This document shows positions 54 through 12,497 of a stretch of DNA of 24,000 nt, one piece after another. The stretch is from contig NZ_JBNNWE010000002.1 in the NCBI RefSeq assembly GCF_050280905.1, positions 99,593 through 123,592 of the forward strand. The letters run 5' to 3'. The DNA is from Pseudomonas sp. NPDC086278 (GTDB taxonomy: Bacteria > Pseudomonadota > Gammaproteobacteria > Pseudomonadales > Pseudomonadaceae). Position 1 is the stretch's first letter; every line of letters begins with the position of its first letter. The position numbers were made by a program, and so were the translations under genes. The notes under the pieces were generated by a model that saw only the letters and a program-made list of their open reading frames with translations, ran no database searches and had not been told where the DNA came from.

Positions 54-1163
54 TCACTCGGTGAACGCAATGCTCTCGACCACTTCCAGGTCGTAACCTG
101 TCAAACCCGCGTATTTCAGCGGAGGCCCCAGATGTCGCAACTTGCCGACACCGAGGTCTTGCAGAATTTGGGCCCCGGTACCCACTTCAGAATAGATGCG
201 CGACTGCGAGCGGCTGAACTGACGGGGAGCCTGAGTCAACTGTGGCACCCGCTCAAGCAATGCCTGAGAAGATTCATGATTGGCCAGTACGACGACGACG
301 CCTCGACCTTCTGCGGCCACTCGTTGTAACGCGGCCCATAACGTCCAGTTGGAAGGGCCGCTGTAGTCGGCGCCCACCAGATCGCGCAATGGGTCGATCA
401 CGTGGACGCGTACCAGTGTCGGCTCATCCCGCTGCAGAGTGCCCATGACCATCGCCATGTGGACGCCGCCTTCGATCCGGTCCTCGAAAGTAATCAGGCG
501 GAAGGTGCCATGCACAGTGGGCAATTCCCGCTCGCCGATGCGGACCACGGTGTGTTCAGTGCTGAGGCGGTAGTGAATCAGGTCGGCGATGGTGCCGATC
601 TTTATGCCGTGCCGTCGTGCGAACACCTCCAGGTCCGGTCGGCGAGCCATGGTGCCGTCGTCGTTCATGACTTCGACGATCACCGATGCCGGCGTGAAGC
701 CGGCCAGGCGGGCCAGGTCGCACCCTGCTTCGGTGTGACCGGCACGGGTTAACACGCCGCCTTCCTTGGCGCGCAACGGAAAGATGTGGCCCGGTTGTAC
801 CAGATCTGCAGGACCTGCTTCAGCGGCGACTGCTGCCGCGACAGTGCGCGCCCGGTCGGCAGCCGAGATGCCGGTGGTCACACCGATTGCGGCTTCGATA
901 GAGACGGTGAAGGCGGTGCTAAAGACGCTGCCATTGCTGGGCACCATTTGCTCCAGCCCCAGCCGTTGACAGTGCTCATCAGTCAACGTGAGGCAGATCA
1001 GGCCACGGGCCTCACGGGCCATGAAGCTGATGGCCTCGGCGGTGCAACAGTCAGCGGCCAGCAGCAGGTCGCCTTCGTTTTCCCGGTCTTCGTCATCAAC
1101 CAAGAGCACCATTTTGCCGAGACGATAGTCTTCGATGATTTCTTCGATACTGTTGAAGGCCAT
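54..1163 (-). CDS. ribBA: 3,4-dihydroxy-2-butanone-4-phosphate synthase fused to a degenerate GTP cyclohydrolase II-like domain (RibBA paralogue)
   Basis: 369-aa ORF with an ATG start. The N-terminal half carries DHBP synthase hallmarks ([26 protein letters not shown]). The C-terminal half is GCHII-like, but the segment where RibA has its zinc Cys triad reads [13 protein letters not shown] and the whole C-terminal half has no Cys. It is not flanked by other rib genes. Confidence 0.9.
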
Positions 1164-1233: not shown

Positions 1234-1530
1234 ATGAAAGCGTACTGGATTGCTCATGTAGACATCACCGACACCGACCAATACAGCCAATATACACAGC
1301 GGGCGCCAGCAGCTTTTGCGCTGTACGGCGGACGAATATTGGCGCGGGGCGGACGTAGCGAGGCGATGGAAGGGCGGCAGGCACCGCAACGCAGCGTGGT
1401 GATCGAATTCGATTCTTACGAGCAAGCGGTGGCGTGTTACCGCTCAGAGCAGTATCAAGAGGCGAGAGGCTACCGCGAGGGCGTGGCTCGGGCCGAAATT
1501 ATCATTGTTGAAGGCGTGGCGCCTTGCTGA
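1234..1530 (+). CDS. DUF1330 domain protein
   Basis: 98-aa ORF with SD AAGAGG 5 nt upstream of the ATG. The translation (MKAYWIAHVDITD...VVIEFDSYEQAVACYRSEQYQEA) matches the DUF1330 pattern as I recall it. Third codon positions are GC-rich. Confidence 0.85.
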   Translation: MKAYWIAHVDITDTDQYSQYTQRAPAAFALYGGRILARGGRSEAMEGRQAPQRSVVIEFDSYEQAVACYRSEQYQEARGYREGVARAEIIIVEGVAPC

Positions 1531-1533
1531 ACG

Positions 1534-2852
<1,319 letters not shown>

Positions 2853-2926: not shown

Positions 2927-3331
2927 TCAAACAGCCGAGGGTTGACTGGAGGCCTCGGCATCGGCTTCGGTGAAGGCTTCACGGGCAAGCCGGAAACTGT
3001 CTACGGCCGCGGGAACGCCGCAATAAATACCGACCTGAAGCAGGATTTCGCGTATTTGTTCACGAGTCAGACCGTTACGCAAGGCTCCGCGCACATGCAG
3101 CTTCAGCTCGTGAGGCCTGTTGAGGGCCGAAATCATGGCCAAGTTTATCATGCTGCGTTCTTTAAGCGACAAACCCTCCCGACCCCACACATGACCCCAG
3201 CAGTACTCCGTGACCATTTCCTGCAACGGCCGATTGAAGTCGTCGGCGTTCTCGATCGAACGATTGACGTAGGTCTCGCCTAGCACCTGTTTGCGAATTT
3301 TCAGGCCTTTTTCATAGGTGTCGTTGTTCAT
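2927..3331 (-). CDS. Carboxymuconolactone decarboxylase (CMD/AhpD-like, PcaC-like) family protein
   Basis: The ORF is open from 3400. I place the start at the ATG at 3331 (MNNDTYEKGLKIRKQVLGE...) because GAGGA lies 5 nt upstream and the upstream extension runs into the REP element. The translation has the CMD-family pattern (WGRE.LSLKERSMI.LA...EL..H...A..NGLT..QI.E.LLQ...Y.G.P). Confidence 0.85.
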   Translation of the reverse strand: MNNDTYEKGLKIRKQVLGETYVNRSIENADDFNRPLQEMVTEYCWGHVWGREGLSLKERSMINLAMISALNRPHELKLHVRGALRNGLTREQIREILLQVGIYCGVPAAVDSFRLAREAFTEADAEASSQPSAV

Positions 3332-3350
3332 TTCATCCTCGCTCAGCATT

Positions 3351-3445
3351 CCTTGTGGGAGCGAGCACGCTCGCGGAAGCGGTGTCTCAGTCAGCATCAA
3401 TGTCGACTGTGCGACCGGATCGCGGGCAAGCCCGCTCCCACAGGG
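3351..3445. repeat. REP doublet (REPIN-like): two inverted Pseudomonas REP units
   Basis: CCTTGTGGGAGCGAGCACGCTCGCG (3351-3375) faces the reverse complement of CCCTGTGGGAGCGGGCTTGCCCGCG (3445-3421). Each unit has its own internal palindrome (GCGAGC..GCTCGC and GCGGGC..GCCCGC). It lies in the 130-nt gap between the flavin reductase and CMD genes. Confidence 0.75.
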
Positions 3446-3461
3446 TTTTGCGTGAAACTGT

Positions 3462-3947
3462 TCAGGCTAAAGTGGGCAGAGGGCCCAATTTTCCTTTGTG
3501 GTAGATCATCGGTGTAACGGGCTGCTCGGGAAGAATCAGATTCTTGACCGCACCGACGATAATCGCGTGATCACCGCCGTCGTACTCGCGCCACAATTCG
3601 CACTCGATGATTGCCGTGGCTTTGCCCAGTAACGGATTGCCCAGCGCGCTCAAGTGCCATTCGATGCCTTTGGCCTTTTCCTTGCCTTTGCTGGCAAATG
3701 CATAGGCTTCCGCCGTTTGGTCGGCGGACAGCAGGTGAATCGCGAACTGTTTGCTGTCACGCAGGACCGGGTAGGTGTCCGAGGCATAGTTGGGGCAGAA
3801 CAACACCAGTGCCGGATCAATCGACAGCGCGCTGAACGCACTGGCGGTGATGCCGACGATGCCACCTTCCGGGTCCAGCGTGGTGACAACCGTTACCCCG
3901 GAAGGGAACGAGCTCATGACGTCTTTGTAAATGCCGGGTTCGATCAT
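3462..3947 (-). CDS. Flavin reductase family protein (FMN-binding split-barrel, HpaC/RutF-like)
   Basis: 161-aa ORF. The translation has the Flavin_Reduct pattern (FPSGVTVVTT....G..G.TASAF.S.S.DP.LV.....). Confidence 0.9.
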   Translation of the reverse strand: MIEPGIYKDVMSSFPSGVTVVTTLDPEGGIVGITASAFSALSIDPALVLFCPNYASDTYPVLRDSKQFAIHLLSADQTAEAYAFASKGKEKAKGIEWHLSALGNPLLGKATAIIECELWREYDGGDHAIIVGAVKNLILPEQPVTPMIYHKGKLGPLPTLA

Positions 3948-3959
3948 GGAAGAGGTCTC

Positions 3960-5441
3960 TTAGCGCATCACGAAAGGATCAGGCATTGGAGCCTGAGAGA
4001 GGTTGATCCACACCGTTTTGAGTTCGGTGTAGGCCAGCACCGAATCGATGCCGCTCTCACGTCCATAGCCGCTGTTCTTGAAACCGCCAATCGGCGCCAT
4101 CGCCGATACGGCGCGGTAGGTATTGACCCAGATAATGCCCGAGCGTACGTCGCGGGCCAGTCGATGGGCGCGCCCGAGATCGCGAGTCCAGATACCGGCA
4201 GCCAGACCGAACTGAGAGTCGTTGGCGATTGCCAGTGCTTCGGCTTCATCCTTGAAACGTATGACTGAGGCCACAGGACCGAACACTTCTTCCTGCATGA
4301 TCTTCATCGAGTTGCTGTCGCACTCGAACAATGTCGGCTCGTAGAACCAGCCTTCACCCAAATTCTGTGGGCGCTTGCCGCCCATGCGCAGACGCGCACC
4401 TTCGGCGATGGCATCGGCGACCAGACCTTCGACCACGGCCAGTTGCTGCGCGGTAGCCATCGGCCCCATCTCGCTGCTGTCTTCCTGGGGGTTGCCGATG
4501 CGGATGCGCTTGGCGCGCTCGACCAGACGCTCGACGAATTCATCGTAGATTTCGTCTTGGACCAGCAGGCGCGAACCAGAGACGCAACTTTGCCCGGAAG
4601 CCGCATAGATCCCGGCAATAGCACCGTTGATGGCGCTGTCGAGGTCAGCGTCGGAAAAAATGATATTGGGCGATTTGCCACCCAGTTCCAGCGACAACTT
4701 GGCGAAATTTTCAGCGCTGCTGCGCACCACATGGCGCGCCGTTGCTGCACCGCCGGTGAAGGCGATTTTGCGCACCAGTGGATGGCGGGTGAGGGCAGCG
4801 CCAGTGCTTGGGCCGTAACCGGTGACGACGTTGACAACACCCGGTGGAATACCCGCTTCCAGCGCCAGGCGCGCCAGCTCGAGAATAGTCGCCGAGGCAT
4901 GTTCCGACGGTTTGATCACAATGGTATTGCCTGCCGCCAAGGCCGGGGCCAGTTTTATCGCGGTCAGGTAAAGCGGGCTGTTCCATGGAATGATCGCCGC
5001 GACCACGCCCATGGCTTCGTGCACCGTGTAGGCAAACAGGTCGGGCTTGTCCAGCGGCAAGGTGCCGCCTTCAAGCTTGTCCGCGAGGCCCGCGGTGTAG
5101 TGGAAGAACTCGGGAAGATAGTTGACCTGGCCACGGGTTTCGCGGATCAGCTTGCCGTTGTCGCGGCTTTCCAGCTGTGCCAGTTGCTCTTTGTTTTCTG
5201 CGATTAGATCGCCCAGGCGTCGCAGTAATTTGCCCCGTGCGGTGGCGGTCAATCCGCGCCAGGCCGGGCTATCGAACGCGGTCTGCGCAGCATTGACCGC
5301 GCGCTCGACGTCCGCTTCGTCGGCATCGGGCAGCTCAGCCCAAGGTTCGGCCAAGGCAGGATTCAGGCTTTGGAAGGTCTTGCCGCAGAGGGCATCGACC
5401 CATTCACCGCCGATGCACATCTGGAAGCGTGCGAGTGTCAT
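3960..5441 (-). CDS. NAD(P)-dependent aldehyde dehydrogenase
   Basis: 493-aa ORF with the catalytic Glu motif ELGGKSP, the catalytic Cys motif GQSCVSGSR and the cofactor motif FTGG. Its start overlaps the stop of the upstream hydrolase by 4 nt (ATGA). Confidence 0.95.
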   Translation of the reverse strand: MTLARFQMCIGGEWVDALCGKTFQSLNPALAEPWAELPDADEADVERAVNAAQTAFDSPAWRGLTATARGKLLRRLGDLIAENKEQLAQLESRDNGKLIRETRGQVNYLPEFFHYTAGLADKLEGGTLPLDKPDLFAYTVHEAMGVVAAIIPWNSPLYLTAIKLAPALAAGNTIVIKPSEHASATILELARLALEAGIPPGVVNVVTGYGPSTGAALTRHPLVRKIAFTGGAATARHVVRSSAENFAKLSLELGGKSPNIIFSDADLDSAINGAIAGIYAASGQSCVSGSRLLVQDEIYDEFVERLVERAKRIRIGNPQEDSSEMGPMATAQQLAVVEGLVADAIAEGARLRMGGKRPQNLGEGWFYEPTLFECDSNSMKIMQEEVFGPVASVIRFKDEAEALAIANDSQFGLAAGIWTRDLGRAHRLARDVRSGIIWVNTYRAVSAMAPIGGFKNSGYGRESGIDSVLAYTELKTVWINLSQAPMPDPFVMR

Positions 5442-6271
5442 GCAACGATCCCCTTGATCTGGTTTTGTTCGGAGTACGCGTTGTCGAGAAACGCCAGGAG
5501 CATCTGGTTCACCAGTCGCGGCGATTCTACCGGCATCATATGCCGCTGCTCGGCGAGCACCGCAACGGTGGCGCCGGGAATTCGTTCGGCTAACTGCATG
5601 GCCATTTGCGGTGTTGAACCCGGGTCCAGCTCACCTGTGGCGATCAGCGTTGGCACGTGAATGCAACCCAGGTCATCAGCGCGGTACATGTCCTGGGTCG
5701 CGAACAGCTCATAGGTGGTCAAGTAACCCTGCGGGTCATTGTTGGCCAAGGTTTGGCGCAAGGCCGCGATCTGTGCAGGGTTGGCTGCCTGGTATTCACG
5801 ACTGAACCAACGCGACAGCGCCGCTTCGGCATTGGCGTCTGGCCCATGCTCCGCTGCCTGACTGGTGCGAGCGATCACACCGGCTCGCTGCTCGGGGCTG
5901 CGATTGAACACGCTGTTGAGCACCACCAGGCCCCGCAGGCGCTCCGGGTAATGCAAAGCAAATGCCCGTGCAACAAGCCCGCCCATGGAAAAACCGATCA
6001 CCGTCGCCTGAGGCAGTTGCAGGTGGTCGAGTAGCTCCCGCAGTTGATCGGCATAGCCGAGCAACGGGGTTCCGCTTTCCGGAAGTGGACTGGCTCCGTG
6101 GCCGAGCATGTCATAGGCAATCACCCGATATTGCGAAGACAGGCCAACGACTTGCCCGCCCCACATTTCTTTGTTCAGGCCCACGCCGTGGATCAGGACC
6201 ACGGGTTGGCCTTGGCCGGTCGCTATATAACTGGTGCCAGCCTGGGTGTGTTCAGCGGTGAGCCGAATCAT
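5438..6271 (-). CDS. Alpha/beta hydrolase (3-oxoadipate enol-lactonase/PcaD-like or RutD-like)
   Basis: 277-aa ORF with the nucleophile elbow GFSMGG and an HG oxyanion motif (VLIHGVG). SD AGGAG lies 6 nt upstream of the ATG. Confidence 0.9.
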   Translation of the reverse strand: MIRLTAEHTQAGTSYIATGQGQPVVLIHGVGLNKEMWGGQVVGLSSQYRVIAYDMLGHGASPLPESGTPLLGYADQLRELLDHLQLPQATVIGFSMGGLVARAFALHYPERLRGLVVLNSVFNRSPEQRAGVIARTSQAAEHGPDANAEAALSRWFSREYQAANPAQIAALRQTLANNDPQGYLTTYELFATQDMYRADDLGCIHVPTLIATGELDPGSTPQMAMQLAERIPGATVAVLAEQRHMMPVESPRLVNQMLLAFLDNAYSEQNQIKGIVA

Positions 6272-6313: not shown

Positions 6314-6904
6314 TCACTGGGCCTTTTCGGCAGCCAGTTCTTCCAGATCGATGTAACGATTGCCAATGCGCGGGTGCAGTCGGCCGCCGTCGGCACAGCC
6401 CAGCACCACGACAATTTCGTCGGCGCGCGGTGCATCTTCGATCTTCATTTCCAGGGTGATGTAGTGCGAGCGCAGACCTTCATCGTCCTTGTGCATCATT
6501 GGAATCTGAATGGATGTGCCCGGGCCGCCGCGCTTGTTGGTGAAGCTCAGGTAGCTCTTGGCTTTCACCGCTTCGCGGTAATGATTGCCGAAACGCAAGG
6601 TATGGATGACCGCAGAGGCATGTTCGATTTCACCGTCGGCGCCCACTACGGCGGCTTTGCCGTAAGCCTCGATTTTTTCGGCGCCGCCGATGATCCCGAC
6701 CAGACGCTCAACCATCAGCGCGCCGAGGTCCGAGCAATTGGCGCGGATTTGCGGCTTCAGGTCTTCAACAAAACCATTCCCCAGCCATGGGTTTTTCATC
6801 ACGACGGCCAGACCGACCATGGTCACCGGGGTATCGGTGGCCTTGCCGCCTTCTATAAAGGTTTCTTCGACGTAGCTGACGATCTTGCGGATTTCGAAAC
6901 TCAT
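6314..6904 (-). CDS. Amino acid synthesis family protein (AA_synth / DUF1185), function unknown
   Basis: 196-aa ORF. It is the first gene of the minus-strand string. The translation (MSFEIRKIV.YVEET..EGGK......) resembles the PF06684-type family as I recall it. Confidence 0.8.
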   Translation of the reverse strand: MSFEIRKIVSYVEETFIEGGKATDTPVTMVGLAVVMKNPWLGNGFVEDLKPQIRANCSDLGALMVERLVGIIGGAEKIEAYGKAAVVGADGEIEHASAVIHTLRFGNHYREAVKAKSYLSFTNKRGGPGTSIQIPMMHKDDEGLRSHYITLEMKIEDAPRADEIVVVLGCADGGRLHPRIGNRYIDLEELAAEKAQ

Positions 6905-6942
6905 GAGCTGCTCCGTGTGAGGTAAAGTGTCTCTGCGTCTGA

Positions 6943-6958
6943 TGGTATACCATAATAC
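6943..6958. promoter_or_regulatory. Candidate GntR-family operator, copy 2 (TGGTATACCATAATAC)
   Basis: The 16-mer is identical to 1197-1212. The palindrome (6943-6952) lies 38 nt upstream of the AA_synth start codon at 6904. On the minus strand the element reads GTATTATGGTATACCA, which contains a -10-like TATTAT. Confidence 0.5.
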
Positions 6959-6995
6959 CGTTAGCGCAAGGGTCAGATTTGAAATGTCGCGGTAA

Positions 6996-7295
6996 GGCGA
7001 CGAAACGAAGGGGTGCAGCGATTTGCAGTGCTATAGGGACGGCTTGCCATTTATTGAAGGCGACCGCGTGGAGCTGCAATAACTGCTCAACGTGATCATG
7101 AATGCGCTCGAAGCGATGGGTGCTGTTGAACTGGCTGAACGCCAATTGCAGATCAGCGCGGTGTTGAACGATGAGGGCGGCGTGCTGGTGAGCGGCAGCG
7201 ATGCGGGGGGATTAGCTGCGGAACACATCGAGCAGGTATTGGGGGCGTTCGTTCGCGGACCTGGTCCGAGAAGTAGGTGGTCTTGTTGCCAATGA
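6996..7295 (+). pseudogene. Relic of a sensor histidine kinase (HATPase_c N-box region only, with an in-frame stop)
   Basis: The frame reads ...GLPFIEGDRVELQ*LLNVIMNALEAMG...VLVSGSDAGGLAAEHIEQV. This matches the common kinase pattern GDR.QLQQVL.NL..NA.EAM...V.D.G.G. A TAA at 7080-7082 replaces the second Q. There is no HisKA or sensor region upstream and the G-boxes are degraded. Confidence 0.55.
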
Positions 7296-7404
7296 AGGTG
7301 CTGACGGGCTCGTCGCGGCTATCGTCCCGCGCCACGTAAGCCGCCTGCGTTGACTACCTGGGTGCAGTCCGGCAAGGCAAGCCTGGGCTGTTATTGGCCG
7401 GGCA

Positions 7405-7644
7405 CTATAAAAGCCACGTATTCACCACCCGCCGATCCAGCTCTTCCCAATCCGCCATGCCCAGCACCCGCGTGGTGTTCAAGCCGCGCAAGTAACCGCG
7501 CAACTGATGGGCGGTGGCCCGGGCAAGCTCCGGCTCAGGCGTCTCTTCGGCCAACAGTACACTTTCGTACTGGATCAGGTAGTCGGCGACCCGGTCACGG
7601 AACTCGGGCAAAACGGCATCGCGGATCAGGTCAAACGTTCTCAA
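7405..7644 (-). CDS. Hypothetical small protein (79 aa)
   Basis: TTG start with GAGGA 6 nt upstream. Third codon positions are strongly GC-rich in this frame. I recognise no family. Confidence 0.45.
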   Translation of the reverse strand: MRTFDLIRDAVLPEFRDRVADYLIQYESVLLAEETPEPELARATAHQLRGYLRGLNTTRVLGMADWEELDRRVVNTWLL

Positions 7645-7802
7645 GGAGAGTCCTCATCAGTCTGTTACAGGGTTGATCGAGTGTTCAGGCGCGTGCACGG
7701 CGCACAACTATTGCTAGACGTAATAGTGACCATCACCAAACGCAAGTTCTACTTGGTGGGCAATTCCCTGAAAATCGCCGCCATCGAACGGCGACTCAAG
7801 AA

Positions 7803-12380: not shown

Positions 12381-12497
12381 GTCTTTCTACCCAGCTTGTC
12401 AATTCTTGAATGGTATCAGCTAGAGTATAAAGCCAGATCGGTGGCGCGCTCTCGCTGCGTACCGGTTGGTATATCAAGACACATGGAGACCTCGCAC

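Follow-up and report, generated by a model that had tools for sequence, protein, structure and literature searches.

Why should one AT-rich 16-mer, TGGTATACCATAATAC, occur twice, letter for letter, in a 24,000-nucleotide stretch of Pseudomonas sp. NPDC086278 DNA (contig NZ_JBNNWE010000002.1, positions 99,593 to 123,592; the whole stretch is called the window below), each time a short distance upstream of a start codon? The initial annotation of the window had proposed that the 16-mer is an operator for a GntR-family regulator encoded nearby. Our analysis supports this proposal through the conservation of the motif, its co-occurrence with the regulator gene, the lack of any other constant regulator and a core of the FadR type. 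Each 16-mer appears to be the better-conserved half of a 22-bp palindromic operator, and the operators are very probably bound by a dimer of the local TgnR-like GntR/FCD regulator (2100-2852), which would govern a catabolic supercluster of the trigonelline type.

The two copies lie on the plus strand at 1197-1212 and 6943-6958, and a scan of the window found no third. Allowing up to 3 mismatches added nothing but the opposite-strand readings of these two places; the count expected from 100 dinucleotide shuffles of the window was 0.01. On the minus strand both copies read GTATTATGGTATACCA, and the first 10 nt of the 16-mer form a perfect palindrome, TGGTATACCA. This palindrome is 33 nt from the ATG of a ribBA paralogue (1163) and 38 nt from the ATG of a gene of the AA_synth family (6904), both on the minus strand. 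In all these respects, the exact copies, the palindrome, the distances and the minus-strand reading, the description in the initial annotation was accurate. Its statement that the copies lie upstream of two minus-strand units holds for ribBA and AA_synth and needs one addition: copy 1 sits within a 70-bp divergent region and also faces a plus-strand DUF1330 gene (1234-1530), 27 nt downstream. Outside the 16-mer the flanks of the two copies are unrelated, and since the similarity ends at the 16-mer, a duplicated segment is excluded. An FMN (flavin mononucleotide) riboswitch or other structured RNA does not explain the conservation either, because an Rfam scan of the window gave no match; the leader of ribBA is 33 nt long.

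Aligned copies from related genomes showed that the conserved unit is larger than 16 nt. We built a position weight matrix (PWM) from 51 unique related sites and symmetrised it. The resulting matrix corresponds to ATATTATGGTATACCATAATAC, with G or A at the outermost position and GG..CC at 100%, and its consensus is the 22-bp sequence GTATTA-TGGTATACCA-TAATAC. The two sites in the window are the following.

6937-6958 (core 6943-6952), no strand: putative operator 2, a 22-bp imperfect palindrome GTCTGA-TGGTATACCA-TAATAC at the head of the AA_synth operon; PWM score 34.0 bits.
1191-1212 (core 1197-1206), no strand: putative operator 1, a 22-bp imperfect palindrome ATATTC-TGGTATACCA-TAATAC in the ribBA/DUF1330 intergenic region; PWM score 32.9 bits.

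Nowhere else in the window did the matrix score 8 bits or more, and 200 shuffles reached 15.9 bits at most. A one-mismatch core, TGGTATATCA, at 12467-12476 precedes the likely ATG (12499) of a LysE-type exporter gene by 22 nt. Because its flanks are unlike those of the operator and it scores under 8 bits with the PWM, we rejected it as a third operator and regard it as a chance match.

Natural sites usually have one well-kept arm and one loose arm. Which arm is kept is not fixed: at the ribBA/DUF1330 site some lineages, the P. veronii, P. grimontii and P. orientalis types among them, have the strong arm on the other side, and a perfect 22-bp palindrome occurs in three metagenomic loci (L130, L137 and L165). 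Interchangeable arms would suit a symmetric site for a dimer better than a directional promoter box. This argues against the reading of TATTAT as a -10-like hexamer, which had been part of the initial annotation; the hexamer is an arm of the 22-bp palindrome, and a scan for consensus promoters was negative. The FadR-subfamily pattern invoked at the same time fared better. The core TGGTATACCA is a dyad of the GT-Nx-AC form found in operators of GntR-family (FadR/FCD) proteins, and it is identical to the core of the UxuR operator.

To follow the motif through related genomes, the GntR protein was searched against species-representative genomes. This yielded 80 loci in which the regulator shares 93% identity or more; nearly all of them belong to the Pseudomonas fluorescens group. 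The exact palindrome precedes the AA_synth operon in 76 of these 80 loci, its centre 45-48 nt from the ATG. Site 1 is present in every locus that has the ribBA/DUF1330 pair (70/70; centre 37-40 nt from the ribBA ATG) and is missing wherever the pair is missing, as in L001, L003 and L007. In profiles anchored on the sites, 16-22 nt of the motif are near-invariant and the sequence on either side varies. To the right of the ribBA site, for instance, different loci have CAAAAT, ATATAT or CGAAAT. Throughout these loci the motif is found 30-110 nt upstream of start codons. The related DNA, 1.57 Mb in all, contains 149 exact cores where its composition predicts 0.73, and all of them lie outside mapped genes. 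None of the 252 PWM matches of 12 bits or more falls inside a mapped cluster gene, and every strong copy sits at a promoter of this cluster. Three of the loci, L020, L054 and L063, come from records titled Gordonia sp., Leclercia tamurae and Janthinobacterium sp.; their regulators are 94-96% identical to ours and their synteny is fully of the Pseudomonas type, and these assemblies are probably mislabelled or contaminated.

The relatives carry further sites just past the position of the window's left edge, at up to four more units, as follows.

ABC transporter operon promoter: TGGAATACCATAATAT.
NCS1 permease promoter: TGGTATTCCA.
Promoter of a second flavin reductase gene: CGGTATACCA.
Promoter of a luciferase-like monooxygenase gene: its own operator in L023, L031 and L083-L088.

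Together with the two sites seen here, the predicted regulon in relatives would comprise up to six operator-bearing promoters. The ABC transporter promoter (L023:13040-13160, with equivalents in about 68 loci) forms a near-invariant block of about 75 nt. This block contains the operator TGGAATACCA, a second and weaker operator-like decamer, TGATATTCCA, 15 nt downstream of it, and a conserved upstream stretch, GATAnCCGGTAAGGCAAAGTGC.

The motif reaches well beyond the P. fluorescens group. Regulators with 62-89% identity were traced to contigs of P. syringae, Halopseudomonas, Nitrincola, Pokkaliibacter, P. oryzihabitans, Gibbsiella and one further relative. These 7 gammaproteobacterial loci preserve the synteny and have the exact core at the equivalent promoters; two of the sites fall in divergent BCCT-transporter/AA_synth regions. 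We also scanned metagenome contigs for the exact pattern GTATTATGGTATACCA and obtained 80 readable loci, 51 of which have a homologue of a cluster gene no more than 1.5 kb from the match. For contigs with a G+C fraction (GC) of at least 0.5 this rises to 42 of 49, and at least 3 of the remaining 7 show the same promoters cut at the contig end or beside a tgnE-like gene. The unlinked matches are mostly in AT-rich contigs (GC 0.24-0.46), where chance occurrences of an AT-rich 16-mer are expected. The exact 16-mer persists where AA_synth identity has fallen to 54-63% and that of the neighbouring GntR protein to 36-60%. In such distant versions the site is typically found in a divergent GntR/AA_synth intergenic region, and motif and local GntR gene co-occur across genera with GC from 0.42 to 0.68. 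The initial annotation had noted that its proposal would suffer if the motif were not conserved at orthologous promoters or belonged to a dispersed repeat family. It is conserved in Pseudomonas loci and in distant genera, and it does not behave as a repeat: the cores far exceed expectation, lie at cluster promoters and, in metagenomes, are linked to the cluster. One metagenome match with a different neighbourhood is L149:971-986 (GC 0.66), where the exact 16-mer is just upstream of an open reading frame (ORF) and beside a possible LysR-type gene. The N-terminus of the ORF product looks like that of a periplasmic solute-binding protein, and a different uptake system may have joined the same regulon in that lineage.

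What protein, then, would read the site? The GntR/FCD gene is the sole regulator gene always present with the motif and is found in every full-length related cluster; no other conserved regulator was seen in the related and distant clusters that we examined. In the distant motif-linked homologues, the winged helix-turn-helix (wHTH) domain is 53-68% identical to that of the window protein, the FCD domain 27-39%. Within the Pfam GntR domain, the segment LVER...GVSR(T/S)xVRE is invariant in the distant regulators. A member of the 90% cluster of this regulator is named 'GntR family transcriptional regulator, trigonelline degradation regulator' in the public annotation of one source. The NCBIfam Uxu model matches only over the helix-turn-helix, with 32.6 bits against a cutoff of 442. 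Among solved structures we found neither a close relative nor a DNA complex.

The genes around the two sites are listed below with the family matches on which the assignments are based.

54-1163, minus strand: ribBA paralogue, with a 3,4-dihydroxy-2-butanone 4-phosphate (DHBP) synthase domain and a weak GTP cyclohydrolase II domain (Pfam; NCBIfam PRK12485, 803 bits).
1234-1530, plus strand: DUF1330 gene, divergent from ribBA and sharing putative operator 1 (Pfam DUF1330, 1e-35).
1534-2097, minus strand: Zn-ribbon NUDIX hydrolase (Pfam NUDIX, 2.3e-20; Zn_ribbon_Nudix, 3.4e-12).
2100-2852, minus strand: GntR/FCD (FadR-subfamily) regulator, TgnR-like, the proposed binder (Pfam GntR, 3.7e-17; FCD, 4.4e-24).
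2927-3400, minus strand: carboxymuconolactone-decarboxylase-family (CMD) gene (Pfam CMD, 5.5e-23).
3462-3947, minus strand: flavin reductase, the TgnA-like partner in a two-component flavin monooxygenase (Pfam Flavin_Reduct, 5.5e-42).
3960-5441, minus strand: aldehyde dehydrogenase, TgnC-like by position and family (Pfam Aldedh, 3.9e-173; syntenic in relatives).
5438-6271, minus strand: alpha/beta hydrolase, TgnD-like by position and family (Pfam Abhydrolase_1, 6.3e-30; syntenic in all related loci).
6314-6904, minus strand: PF06684 (AA_synth/DUF1185) gene, TgnF-like, first gene of the operon (Pfam, 1.2e-69).

From 6904 down to 1534 there is an uninterrupted run of seven minus-strand genes, the GntR gene among them, inside which a terminator scan found nothing convincing. 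With its start at 2097, the NUDIX ORF abuts the GntR ORF, whose end is at 2100, and the NUDIX gene is probably co-transcribed with the GntR gene. The regulator would be autoregulated, because its gene lies within the operon headed by site 2.

Some of the individual assignments call for comment. In the ribBA paralogue, the GTP cyclohydrolase II domain at the C-terminus reaches only 34 bits where the TIGR00505 cutoff is 206, and the protein may have RibB activity only. The NUDIX protein is annotated by one source as an ADP-ribose/FAD (flavin adenine dinucleotide) diphosphatase. The NCBIfam matches of the flavin reductase are to reductase subunits, all under cutoff. For the CMD gene, the exact 157-residue product of the ORF read from its first TTG has no record in the protein databases, and its orthologues have 129 residues; the true start is probably about 28 codons after 3400, which would widen the gap to the flavin reductase gene. 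As annotated, this gap is 61 nt (3401-3461). In many relatives a tgnE-like second aldehyde dehydrogenase gene of about 1.45 kb occupies the position (L001:7903-9522, L083:8077-9516, L084:8122-9588), and the window has none. Upstream of the operon promoter, about 850 nt (6959-7800) are without a convincing gene; a plus-strand ORF at 7092-7295 (67 residues) resembles a fragment of a sensor-kinase ATPase domain and may be pseudogene debris. We also considered a plasmid origin and rejected it: a search of a plasmid collection returned nothing beyond a weak match to AA_synth on Sinorhizobium megaplasmids, and the locus is chromosomal in Pseudomonas.

The composition of the operon suggests what the regulator controls. 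The tgn cluster of Acinetobacter baylyi ADP1, described by Perchat et al. in 2018, reportedly consists of a PF06684 protein (TgnF), a hydrolase (TgnD), one or more aldehyde dehydrogenases (TgnC/E), a flavin reductase with a luciferase-like oxygenase (TgnA/B) and a GntR regulator (TgnR). By Pfam, the window contains the PF06684 protein, the hydrolase, the aldehyde dehydrogenase and the flavin reductase together with the GntR regulator, and the cluster is a probable trigonelline pathway with trigonelline as its probable substrate. TgnF of A. baylyi is described as homologous to PF06684/DUF1185 (PMC7913881). In some genera BCCT betaine carriers replace the ABC and NCS1 systems. In two loci (L087:10585-16279 and L088:11425-17330) genes for an ammonium transporter, a Glu_synthase-like protein, GATase and Gln-synt_C, of the methylamine/N-methylglutamate type, flank the cluster. 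The carriers and these flanking genes would agree with an N-methylated betaine as substrate that releases methylamine. The homarine (hom) operon was also considered as the identity of the cluster and was rejected, as its enzyme families differ.

The position of the dyad in its promoters suggests how the regulator might act. A TTG is invariant at the same spacing in 74 unique related promoters. It is found 5-6 nt upstream of GTATTA at both the AA_synth and the second flavin reductase promoters, and distant lineages have TTGCAC, TTGCCC or TTGACA at this position. In the window the corresponding element is the following.

6964-6969, minus strand: candidate -35 box TTGCGC of the operon promoter, placed by the conserved TTG.

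A hypothetical operon promoter on the minus strand would then consist of TTGCGC (6969-6964), a 16-nt spacer and TACCAT (6947-6942), the last lying inside the operator. For the transporter and NCS1 promoters the hypothetical arrangement is TTGnnn, 16 nt and TAATAT, with the dyad enclosed. The operator would thus lie between a -35-like TTGnnn and the start codon and overlap the spacer and the likely -10 box. Since the dyad so placed covers the spacer and the -10 region, repression by promoter occlusion is the most economical and most likely mechanism, with relief expected from binding of the substrate, or of an intermediate of the pathway, to the FCD domain. Through operator 2 the regulator would control the seven-gene operon (AA_synth, hydrolase, aldehyde dehydrogenase, flavin reductase, CMD, GntR and NUDIX), and through operator 1 the divergent ribBA and DUF1330 genes. 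In relatives its control would extend to the ABC transporter, the NCS1 or BCCT permease, the second flavin reductase and the luciferase-like oxygenase.

Several observations weigh against this picture and should be set beside it. The sites used to train the PWM were picked by their core, which makes the matrix scores partly circular. A scan with the sigma-70 consensus found no canonical promoter at either site, and the placement of the promoters, and with it the preference for repression over activation, comes from conservation patterns. In the literature we found no binding or expression data for this regulator or site. The tgn assignment, probable as it is, is based on gene families and on a regulator name given by one source, and the tgnB-like oxygenase gene, though present in related loci, is outside the window.

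Could the 16-mer be mainly a core promoter element, with TATTAT as a -10 box, possibly extended, recognised by a shared sigma factor? Hexamers resembling a -10 box (TATTAT, CATAAT, TAATAT) do occur in or beside the motif on both strands, and its location, always 30-110 nt upstream of start codons, would suit a promoter. Yet the most invariant positions are the G and C of the core, quite unlike a -10 box, and the motif is a dyad of which perfect 22-bp versions exist. Moreover, at the transporter promoter and in certain lineages the strong arm is on the other side with respect to the gene, the -35-like TTG is only 5-6 nt from GTATTA, a distance incompatible with TATTAT as the -10 box, and the exact sequence is confined to one pathway. 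We regard this reading as very unlikely. Even less credible, to the point of being negligible, is a dispersed repeat of the REP (repetitive extragenic palindromic) or MITE (miniature inverted-repeat transposable element) kind with no specific regulatory role. A short palindrome that recurs in intergenic DNA might suggest one, but the similarity between the copies stops exactly at 16 nt, the strong copies in the related DNA are all at cluster promoters, the GC-rich metagenome matches are almost all beside the same gene families, and no Rfam family matches the window.

If the site is a genuine operator, it might still be bound by a protein encoded elsewhere, either an FadR-subfamily protein similar to UxuR/ExuR or a global regulator. 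E. coli UxuR uses the identical 10-bp core, which shows that several FCD regulators can read it, and binding by the local GntR protein is itself a prediction. On the other hand, the motif travels with the local GntR gene, including in the classic divergent layout of regulator and operon, and no further regulator is conserved in the cluster. The arms also differ (ATTA/TAAT here, AAAT/ATTT for UxuR), and hexuronate genes are absent nearby. We give this possibility little weight. An alternative that deserves somewhat more, although we consider it unlikely, accepts binding by the local GntR protein and makes it an activator or a dual regulator. The negative scan for canonical promoters, whose positions here are predictions, leaves room for it, and in the analogous homarine operon loss of HomR abolishes growth (PMC13236597), which indicates that pathways of this type can have activators. 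Against it stands the location of the operator, between the -35-like TTG and the start codon and over the probable -10 box, in at least 4 classes of promoter. The habits of the family point the same way: FCD-type GntR regulators such as UxuR, FadR, NanR and PdhR are commonly repressors at catabolic promoters.

Binding by the local TgnR-like regulator also agrees with what is described for related proteins. The closest parallel is the UxuR/ExuR system of Enterobacteria, in which a GntR/FCD regulator uses the same 10-bp core at a site within the core promoter; at the uxuR promoter of E. coli the operator is AAATTGGTATACCAATTT (PMC8092373). There the core is flanked by AAAT/ATTT and the genes serve hexuronate use, whereas here the flanks are ATTA/TAAT and the genes are for catabolism of an N-heterocycle or betaine. 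We rejected membership of the UxuR/ExuR regulon, as flanks and gene neighbours differ and the score against the Uxu model is far below its cutoff. Operators of the FadR type (TGGTNNNACCA-like dyads) are likewise dyads with a GT...AC core for a winged-HTH dimer, but the site described here has the central spacing TGGT-AT-ACCA and AT-rich arms that reach much further, to 22 bp in all. Compared with the tgn cluster of ADP1, which reportedly has the same gene families and a GntR regulator, the predicted regulon of the Pseudomonas version is larger by ribBA, DUF1330, NUDIX, CMD and two transport systems; the window itself is without a tgnE-like gene and does not include the oxygenase. Our literature searches for TgnR or for the operator sequence found no described operator, and we know of no published operator for TgnR. 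The homABCDER operon is likewise governed by a local regulator and opens the ring of an N-methylpyridine carboxylate with two partners that supply flavin and activate oxygen, although HomA is an FAD protein and HomC a peptidase, unlike the enzymes here, and HomR is needed for growth (PMC13236597). The word 'GntR' was not found in that paper (PMC13236597), and there is no evidence that HomR uses this motif. Taken as a class, the site is well supported as an ordinary palindromic operator of a local FadR-subfamily regulator, a familiar arrangement and not a new kind of element.

The association of the motif with flavin genes may carry a further meaning. DUF1330 genes are found in distant clusters as well, next to the GntR gene in L088, L098, L109 and L165 and next to the AA_synth gene in L087. 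We suggest, tentatively and with more doubt than confidence, that the regulator also commands a flavin-provisioning module made up of the ribBA paralogue, NUDIX and DUF1330, such that induction of the two-component monooxygenase, a consumer of free flavin, would be coupled to an extra supply of FMN, and that the operator, near-invariant over 22 bp and exact even where regulator identity is down to 36%, marks this coupled regulon across Proteobacteria. The ribBA paralogue would take part as a RibB-type enzyme that makes a riboflavin precursor.

The results provide a concrete 22-bp operator and a predicted regulon map for TgnR-type regulators. They should aid annotation of a widespread cluster for the catabolism of plant- and alga-derived N-methylpyridine betaines in rhizosphere Pseudomonas and marine bacteria, and they offer a candidate operator/repressor pair for biosensors of the trigonelline type. 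Because the 10-bp core is common to UxuR, the specificity of the TgnR-like proteins must lie in the flanks, which makes the site a test case for how paralogues of the FadR subfamily avoid cross-talk. For the biology of the pathway, the prediction that ribBA, the NUDIX hydrolase and DUF1330 share their regulation with a two-component flavin monooxygenase gives a small lead on how these bacteria may provision its cofactor.

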